Assembly: GCA_963751345.1 (NCBI GenBank)
Contig: CAVVUS010000041.1
Span: forward strand, 1 to 61,654
Origin: an uncultured Chloroflexia bacterium
Lineage (GTDB): Bacteria; Chloroflexota; Anaerolineae; B4-G1; SLSP01
Direction: 5' to 3'
DNA length: 61,654 nucleotides
The first letter of the stretch is position 1. Each line of letters begins with the position of its first letter. Shown piece by piece: positions 35,309 through 53,087 of this stretch. The notes under the pieces are model-generated. The model saw nothing but the letters and a program-made list of their open reading frames with translations. It was not told where the DNA came from and ran no database searches. The translations under genes and the position numbers were made by a program.

Positions 35309-35440
35309 TTACCGATCCGGCCCACCCTCTAGTGCTTCAAGGGTCTGCATCAGGCGCCGAAACCGCAGATACATGGTGATGCCCAGTCCGAGGGGCACCG
35401 CACAGAAGATCGCGTAAGCGACGATGAGATAGATCGGCAT
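35309..35440 (-). CDS. ccmD: CcmD-like small membrane protein
   Basis: ATG after AAGGAGG; YLIVAYAIF TM followed by a charged tail; downstream of and in frame with ccmC. Confidence 0.6.
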   Translation of the reverse strand: MPIYLIVAYAIFCAVPLGLGITMYLRFRRLMQTLEALEGGPDR

Positions 35441-36154
35441 CGCGTCCTCCTTAAAGCTCTCTCGCGCAAGCTGCAGCGCAGTCAGACGATCCCGCGCCAG
35501 TGCAAGCCGGATCCGCTGACGCAGCAAGGTAGCATAGATAAGAGTGAAGGCGCCCAACGAGACGAAGAGCGTCTGCACCATCTTAGGCGTCATAGCCATT
35601 CCCTCCGAGGAGATGACCTGGGGATGGATGGTTCGCCACCACCGAATCGCGAACCACGAGAGCGGTACCGTGACAAAGGCAACGATGCCGTACACGGCGG
35701 CGAATCGCGCCTCCTGACCAGGGCTGTTCACCGATCCACGCAGCATCACATAGGCGACGTAGACCAGCCACTGCACGGCTGAGATCGTCAACCGCGGCTC
35801 CCAGGTCCAGTAGACGCCCCAGACCGGACGCGCCCACAGCATCCCTGTGAGCAATGTCATCGAAATGAAAGCCAGCCCCACCTCTGCCGAGGAGAACGCG
35901 ACGATGTCCCAACGCCGATCTCCGCGGATGAGATAGACGACGCTTGCCAAGAAAGTCACAAAGAACCCGAAGAATCCCACCCAGGCCGAAGACACGTGAA
36001 AATAGAAGATACGCTGCACATCGCCCATCGTCGCCTCGCGAGGCGCGTAGCCGAAGACCATCCACATCGCCCCAAGGAACGCAAAGACGCTCAGGATGGC
36101 GAGGCCGCCACCAACCCACCGCTTGCCCTCCAGGGCCATCGTACCGCTTGCCAT
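35441..36154 (-). CDS. ccmC: Heme exporter CcmC (no stop seen before ccmD)
   Basis: QRIFYFHV, WARPVWGVYWTWEPRLT, WRTIHP. Confidence 0.9.
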
Positions 36155-36159
36155 CGATT

Positions 36160-36813
36160 CTAAGCCTCCAGAATGGTCTCGAACGTCAAAAGCGAGGCCG
36201 CCGCGATCAGCAGATCGTAGACGACCAACAGGCGGGTCCACCCGGCCAGATCCGCCCAGTGCAGTCCGTCCAGCAGGCCACCGGTCGCCTGTACTGCCGC
36301 GATCAGCAGCGGGACGACCAAGGGCAGCAGCAAGACGGGCAACATCACCTCACGCGCGCGGGTGTTCACCGCGATGCCGGCCAACAGCGTGCCCACGATT
36401 GCATAGCCGACGGTGCCCAGGAGCAGTATAGCGAGAACACCGGTGCTGAACAGGTTCACGTTGAAGAGAATCGTGGCCAGCGGCACCAGCACAACCTCCA
36501 GTGCCAGCATCATGGCGAGGTTACCCAGAGCCTTGCCCAGCAGGATGACGGTTCGATCGGCAGGTGTCAGCAGCAGACCGTCCATCCCACCCGTCTCGTG
36601 TTCGCGGGCCATCGACCGGCTCAGGCCGAGCGTCCCGGCAAACGCGATCGTCGTCCACAAAACTCCAGGCGCAGCCGCACGCGCGACCGGCCCCCGCAGA
36701 TCGAGGGCAAAGCTAAAGATCAGCATCGCCAAGAAGGCAAAGACGAACATCGCGCTGAGGATCTCGCGGGTGTGCAGCTCGGCGGCGAGGTCCTTCGCGA
36801 TGACGGCTGCCAC
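36160..36813 (-). CDS. ccmB: Heme exporter CcmB
   Basis: KDLAAE, APGVLW, LLGK, REVMLPVLLLP. Confidence 0.9.
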   Translation of the reverse strand: MAAVIAKDLAAELHTREILSAMFVFAFLAMLIFSFALDLRGPVARAAAPGVLWTTIAFAGTLGLSRSMAREHETGGMDGLLLTPADRTVILLGKALGNLAMMLALEVVLVPLATILFNVNLFSTGVLAILLLGTVGYAIVGTLLAGIAVNTRAREVMLPVLLLPLVVPLLIAAVQATGGLLDGLHWADLAGWTRLLVVYDLLIAAASLLTFETILEA

Positions 36814-37618
36814 CTGCCGCAGGTAGCCGGCATTCCCCTTCGGAGGGCCTGTCCTGAGCGAAGTCGGAGGAAGGGGGACGCCGGTCTGCTGGCGCCGGGA
36901 GGGGGAGGCGCGTGACGTCGGCCCGCGGTCGCTGCACCAACTCCCGGTACAGCGCCGGGAACCCAGCAGGATCCGTCACGGCATCATCATATACGACGCG
37001 TCCACGATTGAGGATCACGGTGCGGCGCCCGCCCACGGCCATATTCCCAAGGTCGTGTGACGTAAGCAGAAGCGTCCTGCCCTCCTCGGCCAGGTCCGCC
37101 AGGAGCGCCGTCAGCGCATCCGCAGCCACCGGGTCAAGCCCCGTATAGGGTTCGTCAAGCAGGAGCAGCCGAGGCCGATGGAGGACGCTGCGGGCCACGG
37201 CGAGACGCTGCTGCATCCCGCGCGAGAAGGTGCGGACGAGGTCGTTGCGCCGGTCTGCCAGATCGACACGCACCAAGAGCTCGTCGATGCGGGACTCCGC
37301 ATCTGCCAGACCATAGACTCTAGCATAGAAGCGGAGGTTCTGCTCCGCCGTGAGATCGTCATAGAGAAGGGTGCGATGAGAAAGGTAACCGATCTGACGC
37401 CGCACGTCTGCGCCCGCCTTCGCGGGATCAAGGCCCGCGACGCGGACTGCGCCCTTGGTGAGCCCGGACAGCGTGGCCAGGATCCGCAACAGCGTGGTCT
37501 TGCCCGCACCATTGGGACCCGCAAGGACCACGAACTCACCATCCCCCACGTACAGGTTGACGCTCGACAGCGCGGTACGCGGGCCGAAGGACTTGCCTAG
37601 ATCGGTGATTTCAAGCAT
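36713..37618 (-). CDS. ccmA: Heme ABC exporter ATPase CcmA
   Basis: GPNGAGKT, FSRGMQQR, LLLDEP; located in ccm operon. Confidence 0.9.
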   Translation of the reverse strand: MLEITDLGKSFGPRTALSSVNLYVGDGEFVVLAGPNGAGKTTLLRILATLSGLTKGAVRVAGLDPAKAGADVRRQIGYLSHRTLLYDDLTAEQNLRFYARVYGLADAESRIDELLVRVDLADRRNDLVRTFSRGMQQRLAVARSVLHRPRLLLLDEPYTGLDPVAADALTALLADLAEEGRTLLLTSHDLGNMAVGGRRTVILNRGRVVYDDAVTDPAGFPALYRELVQRPRADVTRLPLPAPADRRPPSSDFAQDRPSEGECRLPAAGGSRHREGPRRRAAHPRDPQRDVRLCLLGDADL

Positions 37619-39244: not shown

Positions 39245-41726
39245 CTATTCGCTTTGGGAGCCGAGCAAGTCGGCCAGCTCCGCAGACAGCGTCTCGGCCG
39301 TCACCGGACCGATGTGCAGATACGCCAGGTATCCTTCGGAGTCCACGACAAAGGTCTCCGGTATACCTGTGATGCCATAGGCCTCGGCGATCTGGTCCCC
39401 TGTGTCCATCCCGATGGGGTACGTCGTACCATACTGCGCCAGCGCTTGCTCCACGGCCGCCAGGTCATCTTGATACGCGATCCCCACGTATGCGACGCCC
39501 TGATCGCCGAAGCGTCTCCCAGACCTGCTCCAGGTCGGGCATCTCCTCCTGGCACGATGGGCACCAGGACGCCCAGAAGTTGATCACCGTCACCTGCCCG
39601 CGAAGCTGCTCGAGCGAGACGGTTGTACCATCAAGCATAGTGAGCCGGAAATCCGGCACCGGCTGCCCAACCAGCGGCCGGCCCCCACCTTGGTTGGGAT
39701 CCACGCCATGGGGGACGCCCCACATGGCCCACCCCGCACCCGTGAGCAACACCACGCCCGCTGCCAACACGAGTCCGTTCATCGTCCGACTCCGCAGTCG
39801 CGGCCAGAATGCCAACGCGCCACCTGCCATGAAAATCAGACCGCCCAACCAGAGGAAATTCACCAGTGGATTGACGACGATCTTGAACGTCGCATCGTTG
39901 CCGCTATCGGACCATCCCGAAAGGATGAGGTAAAGATCCTCTTTGACGCCGGGCGCCAATGCGGGGACGGTGACCGACTGATCGGAGTTGACGTAGTCGT
40001 TGAGTCTCGGCGCGAGACCGGCGACATAGCTGCCGTCTCGATAGACAGAAACGGATGCCCAAACGCTGCTGTAGTCACCGACGAACTCCTGCTGTAGATT
40101 GTCGTAGACGAGCGTGTAGTCACCAACCTCGGCAGGCTGAGCCAACGACAATGTCCGCTCTGCCTCGAGCGGGTACATACGGCTCCCGATGACGCCTACC
40201 GCCATAAGGATGACGCCCACGTGGACGAGATACCCACCGTATTTCCGGCGCTGCAGGCGAAAGAGCCGCCCCAGTGCATTGAGGGGCGCTTCGCCGGTAC
40301 GCTTGCTGCGGTCTGCTGCCCCCTGGACCAGCTCTGCCAGCGTCGTCACGCCCGCGAGGCCAACGAAGGCGAATCCTACCAGGGAAGCCGGAAGTGTGAA
40401 CCCGGCAAGCGCTGCACCCGCGGGTATGCCCACGGCCCCCAGCCCAACGAGCCAGGCGCGAGAACGTAGGCGGACCAGGGTCGTCGCAGCTCGCCCGAGC
40501 AGTGGACACAGCCCCAACAACAGCACCAACGCCCCAAACTGCGGCCCCGTGACACGGTCAAACCATGCAGGGCCGGCCTCGAACCGCTGGGAGGCCAGGG
40601 CTTCGGTCAGAGTCGGCAGCAAACTCCCCACCAGGACCGAGAGGGTCAGCATCGAGAACAGCACCAGCGTCAGGAAGAAGAGGCCATCGCGTGACAGCAG
40701 CCGGTCGAAAGTCTGCTGTCCACGCAGGAGCTTCCGGCGACTGTAGAGTAAGCCCAGCGATCCCACCAGAGTCACCCCGATGGCAGACAGGAAGTAGCTG
40801 CCCAGGTTAGATGCAGCATATGCGTGTACCGACTGGATCATGCCGCTGCGCGTGGCGAAAGTCCCGAAGAGCACCAGCGTAAACGAGGCGATGGCCAGTG
40901 CGAAGTTCCAGACCCGAAAGCCGCGTCTCTCGTCCTGCATCACGGCCCCGTGCAGCAGCGCTGTCGTCGTCAACCACGGCAACAGTCCGGCGTTTTCCAC
41001 GGGGTCCCACCCCCAGTAGCCGCCCCACCCCAGCACGTCATACGCCCAGCGCATCCCGAGCAGTAGACCCAGCCCAAGCCCCAGCCAGGCTAGCAGGATC
41101 CAGCTCCGCAGGCCGCGCGTCCACCCCTCAATCCTCCGCGTGACAAGCGCCGCCAACGCAAAGGCGAAGGGCACCGCCAGTCCAACGTAACCGACGTAAA
41201 GTGCCGGGGGATGGAAGATCATACCGGGGTGGCGCAGCAACGGGTTGAGGCCCTGCCCATCTACAGGGACAGGCGACAGCGAGACAAAGGGATTCGAGAG
41301 CAAGAGCGTCACACCGACGAAGAAGATCGTGATGACGTTGAGGAAAACGGTCGCCCACGGCACCAACGGCCGGGCCTGGTCCGCGGGGCGGGCGGTGGCC
41401 AACGCAGCAAAGAGCGCCTGAAGCGCACACCACAACAGAAGCGAACCTTCTTGCCCCGCCCACACCGCCGAAACCTTGAGGTAGGCGGGGATGACGGTCG
41501 AGGAGTGCTCAGCAACATAGCGCACGGAGAAGTCATTGGTCAGAAAGGCGGCCAGCAGCAACAACAGCGCCCCCCCGAGCAGCCAGGCCAGGGCCAGCGT
41601 CCCATGGCGCGCGCTCTCCATCCACCGCGAATCGCGCCGGTAGATTCCCCAGAGCGCAGCGAACGCCGCGTACACGGCGACGATAACAGAGAGTATCAGT
41701 AGGTTCTGTCCGATCTCAGCGAGCAT
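39245..41726 (-). CDS. ccmF: Heme lyase CcmF fused to TlpA/CcmG thioredoxin domain (frameshift ~39490)
   Basis: WAGQEGS, HPP, WGGYWGWDPVEN, SVHAY; in-frame NFWASWCPSC, then GIPETFVVD. Confidence 0.92.
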
Positions 41727-42209: not shown

Positions 42210-42250
42210 CGCATTCTCCCTAGCCTAACAAAGGTATCTCATAAGGTATC

Positions 42251-43724
42251 TTATGATGAGAGGAGCGCATAGTGCTCCAGTGTCTCACGAAGGGTCGGGC
42301 TAATCTTCCCGAGCACCTGATCGCGAAGCTCTTCGGCGGCCTCTTTCCCCACGAGCTCGCGAAGGACGCTATGCTGCGTCTGCAAGAAACGCCGGTAGAT
42401 CGCCGCCAGCTCGTTAGCCGTAAGATGGCTTTCGGTCCGGTCGTCGATGCGGCTATCGCGAATACTGACGGGCAGATCTCGGCAGCGCCGGTTCACCTCA
42501 TCCTCGCAAGCGTTCGCCTCCTCGGGCGAGGCCCGCAGCGGGATGGCGTTCCGGCACATCAGCTCGGCAAACTCGCGCAGGACCCGCCGTAACTGACTTT
42601 TGTCAGGATCCGCAGGCTGGACAAGGTCGACGAGATAGAGCCCGTAGAGGATCCGGCTGATCTCGAACTCCGTTAACCCGGCAAGACGAGCGACTGTGGT
42701 GATGTCCTTTGTCCCATCGATGATCGAAAGAATCCGCTGCTCTACATCCAGGAGCTGCAACTCCTCGTCGCGAGCATCCCACGTCCCGAGGTTCGAAAAG
42801 AGCATCGGACGCGGGGACAATCCCCTGGATGATCTGCCATGAGTCCAGTTGGCGTGCCCCTTCAAGAATGAGGGTGTCGGCGTCGCGATCCAACACCACG
42901 CATCCCTCGCGCGGACAGCCGCGCTGATCGAAGACGTACCCGCCCCGCTGCCAGCGAAAGAGCTGAAGAACGTCGTCAAGCACGCGGTCCCTATCCATCA
43001 CAGGTCTGTCGGAGGCCTGCGACCCCACACAGTGCAGTCTACCTTGATCGAAGGTCATCGTCCGGCTGAGCGAGCCGTTCGTCACGACAAGGGTCCCACT
43101 GTGCTTGCCCGACGCAACCAACTTGATCAGATCAGGCAGATGGAACTCCTGCAAGTCCCCCTGCAGGGTCATCAGGTCGCCCGTGAAAGGTGCGCAGTCC
43201 TCCGCAGCATTGAGTTGGTCCGCAATGTCGGTCAGCCAGTCCATGTCCAGCCGGGCTGAAGCGATCGAATGCTCCAGAATAGCTTGCTGAAGGGAGTGAG
43301 CTTTGGCGCTCGCACAGTGGCCTTCCAGATCGGAAACCCACTCGCGTAGGAAGTCGATCCTCCGTCGCAGGAGCGGCTCAGCCTGATCGCGTGGTAACCG
43401 ATTCAGCAGCGAGATGCCAAGGTCATATTCGGTCCGGATCGGCTCGACAGACGCCAGGAGATCGCGCATATCCTCCAGGAACTGCTCACGCCCGAGCTTG
43501 GTCACATGGTACACCGTCTTCTCTCCGCCGGTCCCTCGGGCGTGCGCTTCTGCAATCAGCCCTAGACGGTGAAGTTTGTTAAGGGAGTAGTAGATCGCGG
43601 CAGTGCTGATCTCAAACCACAACTCGACCCCCTCGCCCTTGAGTGCCTGGCCAATCTCATAACCGTGCATGGGACGCTCCACCAGGAAACCAAGCGCCAG
43701 AAGATCGTTCCTTGTCAGTTTCAC
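42251..43724 (-). CDS. PadR-family regulator fused to DUF4388-like domain (frameshift ~42780)
   Basis: PMHGYEI, IYYSLNKL, YHVTKLGRE; LQGDLQEFHLPDLI...SGTL; GTG after AGGAGG. Confidence 0.8.
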
Positions 43725-43808
43725 CGTAGTTCCTCCTGGCAGCCTAAGAGGGTCACGCGATCCGACCGCCACTTCGGGCATTATACCATGCGTCGGGAGA
43801 ACGGCGCG

Positions 43809-43881: not shown

Positions 43882-44000
43882 ATTGTGCCGAGGAGGTGCC
43901 ATCCAAGAGACGTACCCAGACTGCCTCTAGCCTTCGCTGATGCCTTGCGGAATCTGCTCTTATCTCGCCTGTCCTCACCCTAATGCCCTGGAGGTCCGTT

Positions 44001-46185
44001 ATGCACATCAGACGTTCCTGCCTCCTCTCTATTGGAGGTCTTCTCGTAGGCTTGTTGCTCGCGGCCTGTGGCTCATCTGCCACACCGCCGCCGGCCGCTC
44101 CAACGCCGTCTGCAGTTCCTCCGACGACGCAGCCGTGTCCCGAGCTTCCGGCGTGTCCCGAGGTTCCGACCTCTCAGCCGTCAGTAGACGTCCCATACGA
44201 GGCAGATTGGATCACTTCGGGTCACGCAGATGCGAGTGCCGAACCTTTCGTTCATTGGAACGAGGATGATCCCGCCGTAGTACCCGAGGGGTGTGCCAGG
44301 TGCCACAGCTCCTACGGCTATCAGGACTTCCTGGGCGCTGACGGCAGCACGGCAGGCGTTGTGGATCAGCCCGCCGCGATCGGCTCGGTCATCAACTGTG
44401 TCGCCTGTCACAACACCGCCACACTGACCCTGACGAGCGTGACCTTCCCGTCGGGGCAGCAGCTGACCGGGCTGGGCGATGAGGCTCGCTGTATGCAGTG
44501 CCATCAGGGCCGGGCTTCGAAGGCGACCGTCGATGCATCCATCGAGAGCGCCGGATTGACGGATATGGATACCGTCAGCGATGACCTCGGCTTCACCAAC
44601 ATTCACTATTTTGCTGCGGCTGCGACCCGCTACGGTACCTGGGCGATGGGAGGCTACGAGTATGATGGCCAACCCTACGACGTCAAATTCGCCCACGTCG
44701 AGGGTATGGACACGTGCATCGACTGCCACGATCCGCACACGCTGGAGGTACAGGTCGAGCGTTGCGCGGACTGCCACGAGGGCGTGACCGCCGTCGAGGA
44801 CCTCAAGGACGTGCGATGGATGGGTTCCAAGGTCGACTATGACGGTGACGGCAATCTCCAAGAGGGGATCTACTATGAGATTGAAGGGCTGCGAAGCATG
44901 CTCTACGAGGCGATGCGGACCTACAGCCAGGAGATCACCGGGACGCCCATCGCCTATAGCGCCGATACCTACCCCTACTTCCTGATCGATCTGAACGGCA
45001 ACGGCGTCGTTGACGCCGACGAGGCCAGTCGAGACAACGGTTTCACCGCATGGACAGGGCGGCTGGCAAAGGCTGCCTACAATCTGCACACATCGGTGAA
45101 GGATCCCGGCGCTTTTGCGCACGGCGGCAAATACGTGATCGAGTTGCTGTACGACAGCATCCGCGATCTTAACGTAGCGCTTTCCAGTCCTGTGGATCTG
45201 ACCTCCGCGCACCGCGTCGACGCCGGACACTTCGATAGCTCTGCAGAGCCCTTCCGCCACTGGGATGCCGACGGTGAAGTCCAGGCCAGATGCGCCAAGT
45301 GCCACAGCGCGACCGGGCTCCCGACCTATCTGAAGGAGGGCGTCAATGTGTCCGCAGAGATCAGCAGCGGGTTCGCCTGCACGACATGCCACGAGGTGAC
45401 CCCTGAGGGTCTGGTGCCCCGCACAGTTTCTACTGTCCGGTTCCCCAGCGGCGTGTCACTCGACAGTGGGAGCTCAAGCGGCAACCTGTGCATGACTTGC
45501 CACCAAGGACGGGAATCCGCCGCTTCGGTCGAACGTGCCGTGACGGGCTTCGCCGACGACGAGGTGATGCCGGATCAGGGCTTCATCAACGTCCACTACC
45601 TCGCGGCGGGTGCAACGCTGCTCGGCGGCAACGCCCGTGGCATGTACCAATACCCGGACCAGGAGTATGCTGGCCAACTGGAACACGTCCAGGGCGCACA
45701 GACCTGCGTGGACTGCCACGATCCCCACGGCCTGGCTGCGGACACAGGCCTCTGCCGGACGTGTCACAAGACCGAGGATGTCAGTACCATCCGGATGTCG
45801 AGTGTGGATTACGACGGTGACGGCAACACGCAAGAGGGACTTGCGCAGGAAGTCTCCACGATGGAAGATCTCGTCTACGCCGGAATGTTGGACTATGCCG
45901 CAACCGTGCTCGAGGCGCCCATCGTCTACAGCGACGCGTACCCATATTTCTTCAACGATCTGAACGGCAACGGCGGCGCTCGATGATGATGAAGGCTCCA
46001 GCAGCAATGCCTACGCCGGTTGGACGCCTCGTCTGCTGAAGGCCGCCTACAACTACCACTACGTCCAGAAGGAGCCGGGGGCGTTCGCCCACAATGGTCG
46101 GTACGTCCTCCAAGTTCTGTACGATACGGTCGTCGACCTTGGCAACCAGGTCAGCATCGACACGACCGTAATGACGCGACCGTAA
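44001..46185 (+). CDS. Decaheme cytochrome c lipoprotein, duplicated pentaheme unit (frameshift ~45975)
   Basis: GGAGG RBS, lipobox LLAAC, ten CxxCH; C-terminus continues in +1 frame to TAA 46185. Confidence 0.9.
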
Positions 46186-46212
46186 CTCATAGACCCATCG
46201 GCAGGAGTGCAT

Positions 46213-49200
46213 ATGACACCACTACCACGGACGCGTTGGCGATACATCGCCGTAGGACTGGTCCTTCTCTGCGTGGCCATCTGGCTATCCCTGGGCAACC
46301 CGGCGGTTGCCCAGGAGCCGGGCCAGGACCATGGTGGCTTCTCGGCACTGGCCGGCCCGTTCGAGACGCCTCAGGAGGTCACCGCAGCCTGCCTCACCTG
46401 CCATTACCTCTCCGGTGGGGAAGTTATGGGCACATCCCACTGGACTATGACAGTGACGGACACCGTCACCGGTCAACAACTAGGCGAGCGCCACATCATC
46501 GACAACACCTGGATCGGTCTCCCATCAAACGAGCCACGGTGTACGTCATGCCACGCAGGCTATGGCTACACGGACAGCTCATTCTTCGAGACGGCAACTG
46601 AGACCGACGTCGACTGCCTCGTCTGCCACGCAAGCACAGACACGTACGAGAAGTTCCCAGCGGGGGCCGGCTATCCGGTCCTCGGAGAGGCTCAGGAGTT
46701 CCCTCCGGGATCCGGCACGATCTGGGAGCCCGTAGACCTGGCAGCCGCTGCCCAGAGCGTGGGGCCACCGGGGCGTGATAACTGTGGTTCGTGCCACTTC
46801 TATGGGGGCGGCGGGGATGGTGTAAAACATGGCGACCTGGACAGCACCCTGGTCGCGCCAAGCCGTGAGCTGGACGTGCACATGGGCACGGATGGCCTCG
46901 ACTTTACCTGTGCGACGTGCCACGGCGGACAGGACCATGAGATAGCGGGCAGCTTGGTCAGTGGCCAAACTCCCGTCGAGTGTGAAGGCTGCCACTCGGG
47001 CGACAATGCCCCTCATCAGGACAGCGAAATGGGCGCGGCGCTGGCCCAGCACACAGATGCCGTGGCGTGCCAGACCTGCCACATCCCTACCTTTGCCCGC
47101 GAACAGGCGACGACGATGTCCTGGGATTGGTCGAAAGCTGGGTTGAAGGATGCAGACGGCCAGCCGGTCGTCTACACGGATGCTGCGGGCAACGTGGTCT
47201 ATGATACCCAGAGGGGCACACTCACGACTGAGATGAGTGTGGTTCCCACCTATAGATGGTGGAATGGCGATATCGCCTATCTCACCCTGGCGGATACGAT
47301 CGAACCTACTCAGACGGTGACCCTAGCTGCCGTACAGGGCGGTCCCGGGGATGGCAAGATCTCGCCCTTCAAACGCTTTACAGGCGTACAACCTTACGAT
47401 GCGGGCGAGAACACCCTCGTCGTGCCCAATCTCTACCCCAATGATGCCGGCGACACTGACGCCTACTGGGCTGCCTGGGACTGGCAGCGAGCGGTCGCCT
47501 CCGGTATGGCTACCGCCGGCGCTGAGTTCAGTGGCGAGATCGGCTGGGTAGACACCGAGATGTACTGGTCCCAGAACCACATGGTCGCACCCAGCGAAGA
47601 AGCGCTGACGTGCGTCGACTGCCATACGAGCGGGGGAAGGCTCGACTTTCAGGCTCTGGGCTACGAGCCCAAGCGCGCGGCCTTCCTGAGTACGCTGGCA
47701 GAGCCGGGTGGTCCTCCGCCGCACCAGAATCTGACACGCTACACGGGGCCCGAGACCTGCTTGACCTGCCATCCCGACGCGGGACGACAGGTGGCGGAAT
47801 CTGTACACTATGCGTGGGACGGCGTCGCCCGACCGACGGCGGCCAACGACGACCTCCTCAGCAGGATGGGATCTGAATACTGTGGCCTTCCGGAGTCGGC
47901 CGGCAGCATCAAATGGCTCAGTCTGCTGCAACCCCAGAATCCGGGCCAGTCCCCGGCGCCCGATGGCTGCGCCCAGTGCCACGTGGGGTTCGGCGCTAAG
48001 CCGAATCCGCCGGACGCCCTCACCGAGGCGGACGAGACCAACGTAGACTGTCTGATCTGCCACGGGCCCGGCTACACACGGACGGTCGCAGATGTCGATG
48101 GCACGCCGCGCCTCGTCGCGGCGCCCGAGGCGGATATCCTGGAGGTGGTGCGAAACGTCCAGAACCCAACGAACGAGATGTGCCAACGCTGCCACGCCGG
48201 CCCTGGCGGGGGGCTGAGTAACGAGCATAGTGGTTCGTTGGCATCGCCTACCACCGACGTACACCTGGCCAACGGGCTGCAGTGTATAGACTGTCACAAG
48301 GTCGAGGACCATCATTTCGTGGGCACCTCTGATCTGCAGGGCGGGGACGACCAGGGGCCGGCGCCAAGCTGCACCGACTGTCACGATGGCAAGCACCCCA
48401 CGGGGTTCACCGCCATCGATATGCACCTGGACCGAGTGGCCTGTCAGACCTGCCACGTTCCTGCTATCGCGAGAGACCCGGAAATTCCTACACTCGTCGC
48501 CACAGACTGCACACAGACTGCGCTTCAGGATAACGGGCTCTACCAATCCGTGATCACGCTGGACACGGAGATCACGCCTTTGTACCGTTGGTCGAACGGC
48601 CAAACGACCGGTTACCCGCCGGGCCCGGTCGGGAGTATCGATGATCCCAGCGCCAAGCTCACGCCCTGGAAAGCCATTACGGCAATGGAGCCAGTCGACG
48701 CGGCGTCCGGGGACTATCTGCCCATCCAGAGCGACATCCTTGCGGTCACCGGGGACCTCGACCAGGCCATTAGCCAGGGAGCTGAAGCCGCAGGGACCGA
48801 CTACTCCGGCTCCTGGGAGCCAACACACCGATCAGTTGCTCTTCCCGGTGAACCACCAGGTGGCACCGGCAGCCGAGGCGCTCAAGTGTGCTGATTGCCA
48901 CACGCGCGATCAGGGCAGACTGGACTTCGTAGGCCTGGGATACTCGGAGGTCCGCGCCACAGACCTGGTGCGCAGTGCGCCCACCGGCACGACCTCGGAG
49001 CCGGCGAATATAGTCCAGGGAAGCCAGTACAGCAGTGATGCACGGGCGTATGTCGGCGGTCTGGAGGAAGCTCTCGGGCAACACAGACATGACCTCAACG
49101 TAGCGATGGGCATCATCGGAGGAGTAGCTGCCGGCGTCGTCGTGGCCCTGCTCCTTGTCATCCTGGTGCTGCGCAGCCGCGGAGTGACGGTGACGAGCGG

Positions 49201-50542
49201 CGAGGGGGTGGCTGCGACAGCACCGCGGTGGCGTGACCGCTATGGTGGTCCTGATCGTCGGCTCGGCGCTCGTCGGCTTTGTGAGCCTGCACTATCTGCT
49301 GGAGTTCACCGCTTCGACGGAGTTCTGCGGAGAGCTATGTCACGCGACGCGGGCCGAGTACGTCACATATCACACATCGCTCCACGCAAACGTGTCCTGT
49401 GCAGAATGTCACGTGGGTCCGGGTCTGGACCAGGAGCTCAAGGCCAAGCTGAACGGGCTTCGTGAGCTCTATCTCTACACCACGAATACGTATGAGCGGC
49501 CCATTCCGTCGCCCGTGGAGACCCTTCGACCCGCCCGCGAGGTCTGCGAGGCTTGCCACTGGCCCGAGGTTTTCTACACCGACCGCGCAGTGGAGATCCC
49601 ACACTTCGCCAACGACGAGGCCAACTCACGCAGCAACACCTACATGCTCGTCAAGATCGGCGGCGGGACCGAGCGAGAGGGACAGGGTCAGGGCATCCAC
49701 TGGCACATCCAGAACAAGGTCGAGTACATCGCCACCGATCCGCAGCGCCAGAACATCCCCTGGGTCCGAGCAGAGATCGACGGCCAGACGGTGACCTACG
49801 TCGACGTGACCAGCCCCACTCAGCGAGGAGGAGCTCTCGCAGTACGAGGTCCGCGAGATGGACTGCATCGACTGTCACAACCGCGCCTCTCACATCTTCC
49901 GATCGACCGACGAGGTGCTGGATGAGGCAATGGCGAACGGTGTCCTGCCGACAGATCTTCCCTACCTCCGGCGTGAGGCCTACAATGCACTGGAGACCCG
50001 GGATGACACCGCTGCTGCGACGGCGGCGATCGAGGCTATCCCCGCCTTCTATGAAGCCAACTACCCGGAGATCTATCAGGCGAAGCAGGATGTCTTGACG
50101 GATGTCGTGCAGGATCTGAAGGATATGTATGCCATCTCGCACTTCCCCGAGGAGAAGGTCTTCTCGGACACGTATCCGGACAACCTGGCGCACCTTGAAG
50201 ATCCGGGGTGCTTCCGCTGCCACAATGGCAAGCACTACGCGCAGGACAGCAGCGCCCAGATCGCAGGAGACCAGTCCATCCGCCTGCAGTGCAACATCTG
50301 TCACACCATCCCGCAGACGGTGCCGGCCGGCCAACCGGTGCCGGAGATCCCATTCCAGGCCGCGCCCACAGCCGACCAGCCACCTCTCAAGCACGTGGAT
50401 CGCCGACCATCGCTACACGTTCGATAACACCTGTACCGGTTGCCACGAGGAGGAGACCTTCTGCGCGAACCCCAACTGCCACGGTCGCAGTTGGCCCTAC
50501 GTCAATCTATCTGTGTCCAATCCACCTTTTCCCTTGCCCTAG
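46213..50542 (+). CDS. Giant multiheme cytochrome: OTR-like x2 + 2 TM + NapC/NirT-like, 24 heme motifs (four +1 frameshifts)
   Basis: SNEPRCTSCHAGYG, GGGGDGVKHGDLD; 22 CxxCH plus CGELCH and CANPNCH; overlapping ORFs 46207, 48641, 49233, 49858, 50129 each offset by +1. Confidence 0.75.
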
Positions 50543-50593
50543 CGGTCGCGGCGGTCAATCGACGCCGCAACATCGAGGTTAGGCGAGCTCAGC

Positions 50594-50637
50594 AAGTGCC
50601 CGGCACCCCACCACGCATCCCAAGGTGCCGGGCACTT
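50594..50637. repeat. REP-like inverted repeat / possible terminator
   Basis: AAGTGCCCGGCACC ... GGTGCCGGGCACTT, perfect 14-bp arms. Confidence 0.7.
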
Positions 50638-50726
50638 CTGTCGTGGCTTTGCCTTTCCGCGACCAATGCGCTACTCTAGTAGTCCGATACCGTTAGGACG
50701 TCGGCAGTTTCATATAGGAGTGACGA

Positions 50727-52653
50727 ATGAAACAAGCCATCACCCCGGAGCAATCGCTTCGTCTCAGCCGGATGCCTGTCGAATACGAATTGTGCATGAG
50801 CCTCGGCTGGCTGAGCAACCTCAGGTGGCTCGCGGGCGCCGGTGTCATCGTTGCTACGTGGGTAGCCAGTGCCCTCGTAGGCGTGGAGATAGACACCGTT
50901 GCGCTCTACATCACCGGAGTGGCCATCCTGGCGTACAACCTCGTTTTCCAACGCTGGTTGACCCAGATCCAGTGCGATCTGACCGGCATCAGCACCCACA
51001 CCCGCACGTTGGCGCGCGTACAGATCGCGATGGACTGGGTAGCCATGACGTCGCTCATCCACTTCTCGGGGGGCATCGAGAGCCCCGTGATCCTCTTCTT
51101 CTTCTTCCACATCACCCTGGCTGCTATCCTGCTCTCCGCCCAAGACACATTTCTGTTCGCAGGGCTGGCCTGCCTCCTTCTAACCGGCACGGCGTTGGCG
51201 GAATTCGCCGGGGTATTGCCGCACGAACACGTCACAAAGATGCTGCCTGCGGATCTCTATGCCAATCCACTCTACATCGCTGGCATCCTCGATCTTCTTT
51301 TCCAGTGCCGTCTTCGTCTCAGCCTATCTGGCAACGCGCACGACGCGGAGACTTCGGGCGCGCGAAAGCGAGATGGTCCAGTTGGGACAGGATCTTCAAC
51401 TCGCCTACGGCAGATTGGAGGCGCTCTACCAGAGCGCTCAGGCCGTCAGCTCGACGCTGGAGCTCCAGGAGGTGCTCGACCGCCTGACTCAGAGCACTAC
51501 CGAGGTAATGGCGGTCAAGGGATGCACCATCCGCTTGCTGCACGACACGAGCACCCAGCTTTGCCTGGCCAGCACCTATGGCCTCAGGGAGGAGTACCTG
51601 CAGAAAGGGTGCCTCCTCGTCGAACAGAATCCCCTGGTGCGCCAGGTGCTTGCAGGAGAGGTCGTGTCGGTGCCCGATATCACCGCGGACTCGCGCCTCC
51701 AGTATCCCGCGGAGGCCGCCGCGGAGGGCATCCGCTCAACGCTGACCGCCCCGTTGGTGGGCAAGTCGGGTCCCCTGGGCATTATCCGGATCTATTGCGA
51801 CCAGGTGCACAGGTTCACCGAAGAGGACGCGCAGTTTCTGCGCACGGTGGCGAGTCACGGCAGCATCGCAATCGAGAATGCTATGGCGTATGAAGCGATC
51901 GAACACTTGGAGGAAGCCAAACGGAAGTTCGTGCTGCTGGTGACGCACGAAGTCCGCTCGCCACTAGGCGTCGTACGCAGCTTGCTCAACACACTTTCCG
52001 GCGGATATGCCGGTAAGCTCACGGACCTGCAGGCTGACATGGTCGACCGTGCCGTCCGTCGCACCGAGTTTCTCCAGACCCTGATCGACGACCTGCTGGA
52101 TCTCGCTGCTGGGAAGACTGGCCTGCGGATGACGAACGCGACGGAACCGGTGGAGCTTCAGGCATTGGTCAGGGGCATTGCCGAGCGATACCACGTGCCC
52201 GCGGAGGAGAAGCAAATCGACCTCCAACTGCACATCGCCTCCGACGACCCTCTGATCGTCGTCGCCAACCAGGAGGAACTCGACCGGGCAGTCACCAACC
52301 TGGTATCGAATGCGGTGAAGTACACGCCCGCCGGCGGATCGGTCACCCTATCATTGTCACGGAGCGGAGGAGCCGCTACGCTGACGGTCACCGACACAGG
52401 AATCGGCATTCCCGAGGATGCTTTGCCCCATCTCTTCGAGGAATTCTATCGGGCACCCAACGCGAAGGCTCAGGTGAAACAGGGCACGGGCCTGGGCCTG
52501 GTGATTGCCAAGGATATTGTGAGCCGCTATGGTGGCACAATTGGGGTGAGCAGCACATTGAATCAGGGGACCACGTTCTCCGTGGTTCTGCCGGTAAGCG
52601 TTCAGAAATCCCAGCCGGCGCGAACTGGCATTCCGTCGATGTCTGTGCGATAA
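50727..52653 (+). CDS. Membrane GAF sensor histidine kinase (frameshift ~51290)
   Basis: Multi-TM N-terminus (SGGIESP), GAF, THEVRSPL, NAVKY, DTGIG, GTGLGL. Confidence 0.9.
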
Positions 52654-52706: not shown

Positions 52707-53087
52707 ATGGAGCCTAAGAAGATTCTTATTGCCGATGACGATCCCGACCTCGTCCTCGCTACACGCCTCGTCTTGGAAAGCGCGGGGTACGTCGTTGACG
52801 AGGCTTCTAGCGGGGAAGCGGCGCTGGAGAAGATGCGTGCCGATACGCCTGACCTCGTCCTGATGGACGTGATGATGGCCAACCCCCTCGATGGCTACTA
52901 CACTACGCAGCAGATAGCCGACGATCCGGCACTCAGCGAAGTACCCATCGTGATGGTCTCCTCCATCGCGACGTCGCAATACGCGGCGAGCTTCCCCACC
53001 AATCAGCTACTGTCGATTCGCGAGTTCATCTCGAAGCCCGTCGAACCTGAGCAGCTGCTGGCGAAGATCAAGCGCTACGTGAGGTAA
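52707..53087 (+). CDS. Single-domain response regulator
   Basis: ADDDPD, LMDVMM, SKP; no output domain. Confidence 0.9.
   Translation: MEPKKILIADDDPDLVLATRLVLESAGYVVDEASSGEAALEKMRADTPDLVLMDVMMANPLDGYYTTQQIADDPALSEVPIVMVSSIATSQYAASFPTNQLLSIREFISKPVEPEQLLAKIKRYVR

Follow-up and report, generated by a model that had tools for sequence, protein, structure and literature searches.

The window, i.e., the whole stretch of DNA analyzed here, comprises 61,654 nt of contig CAVVUS010000041.1 from an uncultured soil bacterium of the Anaerolineae (Chloroflexota). Its plus strand carries, from 46207 to 50542, five overlapping open reading frames (ORFs) in frames 1, 2, 0, 1, and 2, each offset by +1 from the one before, as an earlier, sequence-only reading of the window had stated. 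The five ORFs are pieces of one gene encoding one 24-heme membrane protein of ~1,441 amino acids (aa), or ~170 kDa with hemes. The predicted order of its parts is a signal peptide, two domains like the octaheme tetrathionate reductase (OTR), a transmembrane (TM) helix, a basic loop, a second TM helix, and an eight-heme module of the ImcH family. Counted segment by segment, the heme motifs come to 24. The sequence-only reading had this number right; as a small correction, the motifs are not all CxxCH, there being 22 CxxCH, one CX3CH, and one CX4CH. In order, the two OTR parts hold 16 CxxCH, and these are followed by CGELCH (the CX3CH), six CxxCH, and CANPNCH (the CX4CH). The features are as follows, where G002 is a genome of the same genus with an intact copy of the gene.

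46207-48894, 48641-49465, 49233-49925, 49858-50427, 50129-50542, plus strand: the five ORF pieces
46207..46320, plus strand: start (GTG at 46207 or ATG at 46213) and predicted Sec-type signal peptide with a basic n-region
46327..47664, plus strand: OTR-like octaheme domain 1 (TIGR04315, 523 bits), with eight CxxCH at 46390-47611
47752..48943, plus strand: OTR-like octaheme domain 2, divergent, with eight CxxCH at 47758-48887; interrupted at 48825
48825, plus strand: extra base 1, within OTR-like domain 2, shifting frame 1 to 2; insertion relative to G002
49100..49171, plus strand: TM helix 1, outside to cytoplasm, by hydropathy
49172..49238, plus strand: short basic cytoplasmic loop of ~20 residues (RSRGV...RW/HHR), rich in Arg and His; holds the 49199 break
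49199, plus strand: extra base 2, in the basic cytoplasmic loop; insertion relative to G002
49239..49301, plus strand: TM helix 2, cytoplasm to outside, aligned with the NrfH TM helix
49302..50542, plus strand: ImcH-family (NapC/NirT-related) eight-heme predicted quinol dehydrogenase module; stop codon at 50540-50542
49326 (CGELCH); 49398, 49545, 49864, 50209, 50290, 50432 (CxxCH); 50462 (CANPNCH), plus strand: heme motifs of the module
49813 and 50358, plus strand: extra bases 3 and 4, both in the ImcH-family module; insertions relative to G002

One gene and four extra bases

Aligned at the nucleotide level with the intact G002 gene, the window has exactly four 1-nt insertions, at 48825, 49199, 49813, and 50358, and no further indel (3805/4353 identities, 87.4%). 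The sequence-only reading had put the junctions at ~48830, ~49200, ~49820, and ~50375, no more than 20 nt from the aligned sites. The third ORF piece was used to search 41 related genomes, including that of the window (G000), and found a match in seven of the 41, G000 counted. In G002, G006, and G015, the gene is one open frame from stop to stop, of 1450, 1437, and 1472 aa, respectively, each with 22 CxxCH, one CX3CH, and one CX4CH. As in the window, all three have a decaheme cytochrome gene upstream and a 640-680-aa frame downstream. Two of these three records have NODE_ or scaffold contig names and are read as short-read assemblies. A fourth copy, in G021 of the same genus, lies in four frame pieces, with three +1 shifts at positions other than those of the window. 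Every break in the window and in G021 is a +1 shift by a single base, so the breaks fit a systematic error. Three of the window's four breaks are within domains rather than between them.

Short-read contigs from four soil-metagenome runs of one study were aligned with 46100-50650. The base is absent at 48825/48826 in two X3 contigs and one X4 contig (the latter with 1 other difference in 151 nt), at 49197 in an X1 contig with 3 further differences over 151 nt, and at 49810 in an X1 contig with 18 further differences over 409 nt. The short-read contigs thus lack the extra base at three of the four break sites.

The window's assembly has such breaks elsewhere. Seven long housekeeping genes were checked across the genome, and two of them proved broken: rpoB is split over two frames by one shift (G000:C10:143888-147659), and ileS is split over three (G000:C18:170374-173153). 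The five whole ones include rpoC, secA, gyrA, and dnaE. Since rpoB and ileS are also frameshifted, single-base errors occur genome-wide in this assembly, and gene calls made from it will split real genes. Near the 24-heme gene, neighboring genes are also broken by 1-nt insertions relative to G002, at 45981, 51292, and 42777.

The ratio of nonsynonymous to synonymous divergence (dN/dS) from G002, from a codon comparison made block by block without joining the blocks, is 0.11 overall. By part, it is 0.13 for OTR domain 1, 0.12 for OTR domain 2, and 0.07 for the C-terminal part. With values of 0.07-0.13 in every part, the segments 3′ of each break are under the same purifying selection as the rest. 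As a separate observation, synonymous divergence from G002 (locus L014) varies threefold within the gene, with dS of 0.25 in OTR domain 1, 0.76 in OTR domain 2, and 0.58 in the C-terminal part, a pattern that suggests intragenic recombination.

We conclude that assembly errors caused the breaks and that the gene is intact, i.e., it encodes a single ~1440-aa, 24-heme polypeptide split by sequence errors, as the sequence-only reading had proposed. That the frameshifts are instead real in this strain, leaving a pseudogene or separate OTR-OTR and ImcH-like proteins, is very improbable: the four extra bases do stand in the assembly, 50358 is without read coverage, and the G021 copy is also in four pieces, but near-identical short-read contigs lack the base at three sites, purifying selection persists beyond the breaks, rpoB and ileS of the same genome are frameshifted, and the breaks are single-base +1 events, three of them inside domains. 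Programmed +1 frameshifting was rejected, as the homologues have no shift, the bases are absent from the short-read contigs, and the sites share no motif.

The modules and their families

A search of a 5.8-billion-protein collection, restricted to proteins of 792-2522 aa, found 38 relatives of the C-terminal module in that range. Six are full-length 24-heme forms of 1397-1441 aa (P0001-P0004, P0006, and P0007), and two, P0005 and P0031, are N-terminally cut fragments of the fusion. All six full-length relatives have three hydrophobic segments (signal, TM1, and TM2) and 24 motifs, with 8 + 8 CxxCH in the OTR parts. The N-terminus is of the signal type, as had been claimed, with a hydrophobic core at 46249-46293 and an AVA-QEP cleavage site at 46303-46320. 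The G002 protein starts at the Met equivalent to 46213.

Domain 1 scores 523 bits against a TIGR04315 cut-off of 375 and covers profile positions 2-440 of 440. Its G002 counterpart matches the Shewanella OTR (PDB 1SP3) end to end (E 1.2e-105, 357 bits). Domain 2 gives TIGR04315 matches of 153 bits (47752-48819) and, in the next frame, 28 bits (48836-48943), which are below the 375-bit cut-off; it matches chain residues 71-429 of 1SP3 with an E of 1.1e-34. With the MmcA-related profile TIGR04314, domain 2 gives a weak match (E 8.6e-17; 61 bits, where the cut-off is 250). The two OTR-like octaheme domains of the sequence-only reading are thus both found, with the refinement that the second is divergent. 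Within the length range searched, domain 2 has 628 relatives of its own at E<=1e-10. As judged by these matches, it is a separate, mostly unannotated OTR subfamily. Domain-2-type modules among the relatives (P0313-P0362) are mostly named 'hypothetical', have 7-8 or 15-16 hemes, and in many cases end in a C-terminal TM anchor.

The topology proposed by the sequence-only reading, from outside through TM1, the loop, and TM2 to the outside again, is kept in all six full-length relatives. An AlphaFold2 model of the hairpin and the C-terminal module, built from the G002 sequence and 71 homologues, has a pLDDT of 87.3 and a pTM of 0.85. In this model helices 2-38 and 54-82 pair as a hairpin, so the structure prediction recovers the hairpin, and it also matches an NrfH-type core. 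All 24 hemes are predicted to be on the outer face of the cytoplasmic membrane.

The C-terminal module begins its heme run with CGELCH, 8 codons past TM2. The sequence-only reading called this part NapC/NirT-like. A match to PF03264, the N-terminal region of NapC/NirT, bears this out as a relationship (E 2.7e-11 for the 49233 piece), and it covers part residues 58-144 only. The intact C-terminal part scores far below the family cut-offs, with 21.7 bits against 310.6 for NapC/NirT (TIGR02161) and 45.1 against 134.2 for NrfH (TIGR03153). Therefore, the module is related to, but does not belong to, the NapC/NirT/NrfH families. By sequence, it matches NrfH (2J7A) with an E of 1e-6, and NrfH is the sole meaningful structural match of the AlphaFold2 model (Foldseek probability 1.00, TM-score on target 0.57-0.60). 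With VIA, 142 of 145 NrfH residues align with model residues 59-362 at a Z of 6.6. For the 300 residues beyond this NrfH-like core, Foldseek gave no match in the PDB at E<=0.001 and the VIA-wide list gave generic helical hairpins at Z<8, neither being informative on fold novelty.

The closer kin of the module lie elsewhere. Query residues 1004-1365 (362 of ~485 aa) are 37% identical, with an E of 4e-69, to a protein from a Geobacteraceae metagenome-assembled genome, and Desulfuromonas proteins are similar. These homologues have 485 aa, three TM helices, and a first CX3CH followed by five CxxCH, and their six motifs align with those of the module. No variation is seen across the 72 aligned homologues (72/72) in six heme motifs, in four His and one Lys, or in F-C-x3-C-H, and the invariant Lys aligns with Lys82 of NrfH. 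A Met after the first heme motif, found in 65 of the 72 and aligned with NrfH Met49, is Thr or Leu/Gln in the fused clade. We take NrfH Met49 to be the heme-1 ligand.

When 1.84 billion representatives were searched in full with HMMER, 2668 module relatives came up at E<=0.001. Most have 450-700 aa, and the match begins either near residue 20, after a single TM helix, or at residue 100-130. A one-genome-per-species scan gave 213 module loci, and the best 80 of these 213 come from Chloroflexota, Ignavibacteria, Bacteroidales, Bryobacteraceae and other Acidobacteriota, Opitutaceae, Desulfuromonadales, and Geobacteraceae. In the passages of PMC4251993 and PMC6295460 that deal with it, ImcH has three putative TM helices and seven heme motifs, the first being CXXXCH (a feature also stated in the legend to Fig. 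1 of PMC4251993), and it resembles NapC/NirT in the region of the last helix and the first hemes. The spread of our homologues agrees with the ImcH spread reported in those passages, i.e., Acidobacteriota, Verrucomicrobiota, Ignavibacteria, and Desulfuromonadales. Because architecture and phyletic spread match those published for ImcH, we file the module, as a probable member, under the ImcH family rather than NapC/NirT proper, a sequence-based assignment that uses architecture, homologues, and spread.

Proposed origin of the fusion and its surroundings

The nearest OTR-family relatives of domain 1 that were inspected number 13. A group of ~550-570-aa octahemes from Anaerolineales/Anaerolineae has, in seven of eight cases, a signal peptide, a linker rich in Pro, Glu, and Thr, and a C-terminal TM helix with an Arg/Lys tail. 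All three 15-heme Chloroflexota OTR forms are likewise tail-anchored by a TM helix and a basic tail. Two Verrucomicrobiales proteins and a protein of 498 aa lack this ending. Among standalone relatives of the module, the closest ones from Chloroflexota have a single N-terminal TM helix, and both standalone forms, the tail-anchored OTR and the head-anchored ImcH-like cytochrome, occur in Anaerolineales. Since the nearest module relatives have one TM helix and the nearest OTRs are tail-anchored, the protein would most simply have arisen by end-to-end fusion of a tail-anchored OTR-type and a head-anchored ImcH-like cytochrome, the two anchors becoming the hairpin. TM1 would then descend from the anchor at the C-terminal end of the OTR part, and TM2 would be the N-terminal anchor of the ImcH-like module. 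An alternative in which OTR domains were inserted into a three-TM ImcH, within its first outer loop, was considered and rejected; MAFFT aligns TM1 with the second TM helix of ImcH, but this is hydrophobic matching.

Within the genus, 4 of 21 other genomes carry the fused gene, and among 150 listed 50%-identity representatives the module is found at residues 945-1427 in P0003 only. In the remaining relatives of the 38, the module is N-terminal and followed by other heme-rich extensions, for 10-43 motifs in total, mostly 18-43. One of these, P0012, is a fusion in reverse order, with an ImcH-like module followed by a partial OTR match (148 bits). The proteins P0008-P0038 have such N-terminal ImcH-like modules in chains of 800-1800 aa, some with fibronectin type III domains. 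A general ImcH/OTR gene-neighborhood link was rejected, as 0/75 standalone ImcH-like loci had an OTR-like hit (E<=1e-10) in the flanks covered, and the long matched ranges at L052 and L106 are separate genes.

Full-text literature searches found no description of an OTR-OTR-ImcH/NapC fusion or of a 24-heme ImcH-type protein. The MccSep paper (PMC13510729) and a salt-marsh Anaerolineae paper (PMC11748557) gave nothing on the 24-heme protein. The sequence-only reading knew of no described protein with this architecture, and as regards the literature this stands; however, the 24-heme forms are already deposited (NCBI, JGI) under the machine-given name 'tetrathionate reductase family octaheme c-type cytochrome'. 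A 2018 survey, in its passage on ImcH homologues, gives 6-10 heme motifs and one Chloroflexi homologue (PMC6295460). The protein extends ImcH-containing proteins from the 6-10 hemes reported there to 24, and other proteins from Chloroflexota and related groups carry 18-43. Fusion and fission of heme modules is a recognized theme, according to the relevant text of PMC11492766.

The genes around the 24-heme gene are as follows.

35309..36241, minus strand: CcmC-like assembly protein, cytochrome c maturation
36713-37618, minus strand: ABC ATPase, among the cytochrome c maturation genes
39465-41726, minus strand: CcmF/NrfE heme lyase with a thioredoxin-like end, cytochrome c maturation
42251-43781, minus strand: PadR/DUF4388 regulator, in two overlapping ORFs with an insertion at 42777 relative to G002
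43983..46190, plus strand: decaheme lipoprotein (lipobox LLAAC), upstream and co-oriented
50727-52653, plus strand: sensor histidine kinase (GAF, HisKA, HATPase), downstream, in two overlapping ORFs with an insertion at 51292
52707-53087, plus strand: response regulator, downstream of the kinase

The decaheme lipoprotein is cut at 667 aa by the 1-nt insertion at 45981, and in relatives it has 745-750 aa (about 747). Among solved structures it has no relative at the sequence level (best E 0.38). It consists of two similar five-heme halves and contains DYDGDGN motifs. On the other strand, the CcmF/NrfE protein has at its C-terminus (residues 686-743) the initial half of a thioredoxin/ResA-like domain, which would reflect either a fusion or a frameshift-truncated neighbor. 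At 42240-42251, in an intergenic or regulator region, there is a 12-nt direct duplication that is an insertion relative to G002.

The genome of the window has 5.4 Mb in 49 contigs, is 93% complete, and is rated 5.6% contaminated. A second set of weak rpoB-/rpoC-like matches at G000:C14:93788-96104 may be a divergent copy or contamination. BamA (TIGR03303) and LpxC (TIGR00325) have no match in this 93%-complete genome, and BamA was matched in 7/7 diderm controls. By these gene-content data the host bacterium appears single-membraned, which fits the premise of the sequence-only reading that the cell has no periplasm. In the part of PMC5808234 concerned, Chloroflexi are regarded as single-membrane bacteria. 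Tail anchors, head anchors, and their fusion are then ways in which long heme chains are retained at a surface without an outer membrane.

Proposed function of the 24-heme protein and comparison with known systems

The OTR family has a signature of two residues near heme 2. All of the 120 nearest OTR-family proteins have the Lys, a ligand of heme 2 (120/120), and 119/120 have the Cys, which stands in the NN[YF]C preceding the heme-2 motif. The OTR passages of a preprint (bioRxiv 10.1101/2023.04.20.537704) put the catalytic site at heme 2, this Lys, and this Cys, give all OTRs eight motifs, and call the native function of OTR 'cryptic'; MmcA, which lacks the OTR catalytic features, is described there as an electron conduit. 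In domain 1 of the window, the heme-2 Lys is Glu (LGERH, 46480-46494) and the conserved Cys is Trp (DNTW, from 46501), and short-read contigs over 46408-46720 and 46472-46683 agree with the window at both codons. In no fused form does domain 2 have an equivalent of the Lys or the Cys. In domain 1 the fused clade varies, as follows.

P0004, P0007, and the partial P0193: Lys kept, Cys kept
G006/P0002 and G015/P0003: Lys kept, Cys lost (Tyr or Leu)
The window and G002 (LGER...DNTW): Lys lost (Glu), Cys lost (Trp)
P0006, which has two domain-2-type copies: Lys lost, Cys lost

In Geobacter, ImcH is the electron entry point to high-potential extracellular acceptors, and to our knowledge its immediate electron acceptor is not settled. 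We propose that the ImcH-like module of the fusion would oxidize menaquinol at its membrane-proximal CX3CH heme. Electrons would run along the module's eight hemes and on to the 16 in the OTR-like domains, which would serve as a wire and pass them to the co-encoded decaheme lipoprotein, a candidate acceptor, and then to extracellular or high-potential acceptors. The direction of quinol oxidation is taken, by analogy, from the ImcH homologue reports in PMC6295460; this direction, the partner, and the substrate are what we infer. The OTR-like domains are read as a wire because those of this species lack the Lys/Cys signature, and as neither domain keeps it, 'redox chain' fits better than 'reductase'. 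Strong purifying selection on both OTR domains leans towards a wire, as do the adjoining decaheme lipoprotein and, by analogy, SmhA, an OTR-related octaheme that the relevant passage of PMC7829351 proposes as a core carrier of electrons in an iron-reducing Gram-positive organism. Given a whole gene, these sequence features somewhat favor a wire role in this species, with catalysis a clearly less probable second. Taken jointly, a single gene with this architecture, a fusion origin, and a quinol-to-surface wire form the best explanation, with a probability of about 0.72. The analysis shows that the gene is intact and under purifying selection, how its product is built, to which families the parts are related, and that the signature residues have been lost.

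Several points weigh against this joint explanation. As to the gene, none of the listed short-read contigs spans 50358, and the case for the fourth break being an error rests on the continuous frames of homologues and on the two C-terminal heme motifs being conserved. All of these contigs come from one study, and their source population may be that of the assembly itself; they support the case without being fully independent, and one of them is just ~95.6% identical (18 differences in 409 nt). As to the families, databases give the Geobacteraceae and Desulfuromonas homologues no other name than 'cytochrome C', their ImcH orthology resting on architecture, and the quinol-site chemistry of the fused clade, which has no Met after motif 1, may differ. 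OTR-like matches (E<=1e-10) are found in the flanks covered of 0/75 standalone ImcH-like loci, so the ImcH-OTR link is lineage-specific and not general. As to the wire, both OTR domains keep the heme-2 CxxCH motif, and a differently ligated active heme is conceivable; since P0004, P0007, and P0193 keep both Lys and Cys, the fusion may have been enzymatic in its ancestral form. The function as a whole we infer from sequence.

The last points lead to the strongest competitor, a membrane-anchored quinol:substrate oxidoreductase resembling a fused NrfH-NrfA-type pair, in which one OTR-like domain would reduce tetrathionate, nitrite, hydroxylamine, or another S or N compound at heme 2. Domain 1 is a strong OTR match (523 against 375 bits; E 1.2e-105 with 1SP3), its heme-2 motif and that of domain 2 persist, some fused forms keep the full signature, and NrfH-type anchors normally serve catalytic multiheme partners, as in NrfHA (2J7A). 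We nevertheless hold such an enzyme to be rather unlikely here, for the near-universal Lys and Cys of the nearest OTR-family proteins are Glu and Trp in the window and G002 and have no equivalents in domain 2 of any fused form, and the gene next door encodes another large multiheme lipoprotein, not a substrate-handling protein. Reverse flow, in which electrons from an extracellular donor (Fe(II) or a cathode) would pass through the OTR domains and the ImcH-like module to quinone, is quite improbable. Multiheme chains are reversible in principle, and a Chloroflexota isolate has both anodic and cathodic electron transfer in the pertinent text of PMC5808234, but the survey passages of PMC6295460 have ImcH homologues only in Fe(III) reducers and only as quinol oxidases, and the locus holds nothing that indicates oxidative metabolism.

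Returning to the quinol-to-surface wire, the fusion could also be read as a 'Rosetta stone', though only tentatively and with doubt. OTR octahemes would be the partners of ImcH, and the clade order, first Lys and Cys kept, then Lys only, then neither, would trace a stepwise transition from enzyme to a self-contained 24-heme wire between quinol pool and cell surface in single-membrane Chloroflexota. If true, OTR-type octahemes would be physiological redox partners of ImcH-type quinol oxidases. The covalent ImcH-OTR link makes this a testable hypothesis for both families, to which the independent reverse-order fusion P0012 adds.

Among known systems, the module is like ImcH (GSU3259, Geobacter sulfurreducens) in that its first motif is a CX3CH directly after a TM helix, a further CxxCH run follows, and the resemblance to NapC/NirT does not reach beyond the last TM helix and first hemes. 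In contrast to ImcH, it has eight heme motifs rather than seven, with two extra at the C-terminus, one of them CX4CH; in place of the three-TM N-terminus there is a hairpin, the first helix of which comes after 950 residues of OTR-like domains; and the Met after motif 1 found in most homologues is missing. ImcH homologues have 6-10 hemes in the survey's account (PMC6295460), against 24 in the fusion. Domain 1 is like OTR (Shewanella oneidensis SO4144, 1SP3; TIGR04315) from end to end, with all eight CxxCH, whereas the fusion has tandem copies, a membrane tether, and a quinol dehydrogenase partner, and the heme-2 Lys and nearby Cys are replaced in domain 1 and absent from domain 2. As in NrfH-NrfA (2J7A), a membrane-anchored NrfH-like heme module would feed a larger multiheme module outside the membrane; unlike that complex, the fusion is one polypeptide, its partner is of the OTR type rather than NrfA, and its module is below the NrfH and NapC/NirT cut-offs. 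MmcA of Methanosarcina, an OTR-derived heptaheme, is, as far as the passages on it go, another OTR module without the Lys and Cys beside a membrane energy-conserving unit, but it has also lost the heme-2 motif and is a separate protein of the archaeal Rnf complex. The architecture joins known kinds of cytochrome rather than forming a new category, and it is relevant to researchers of extracellular electron transfer.

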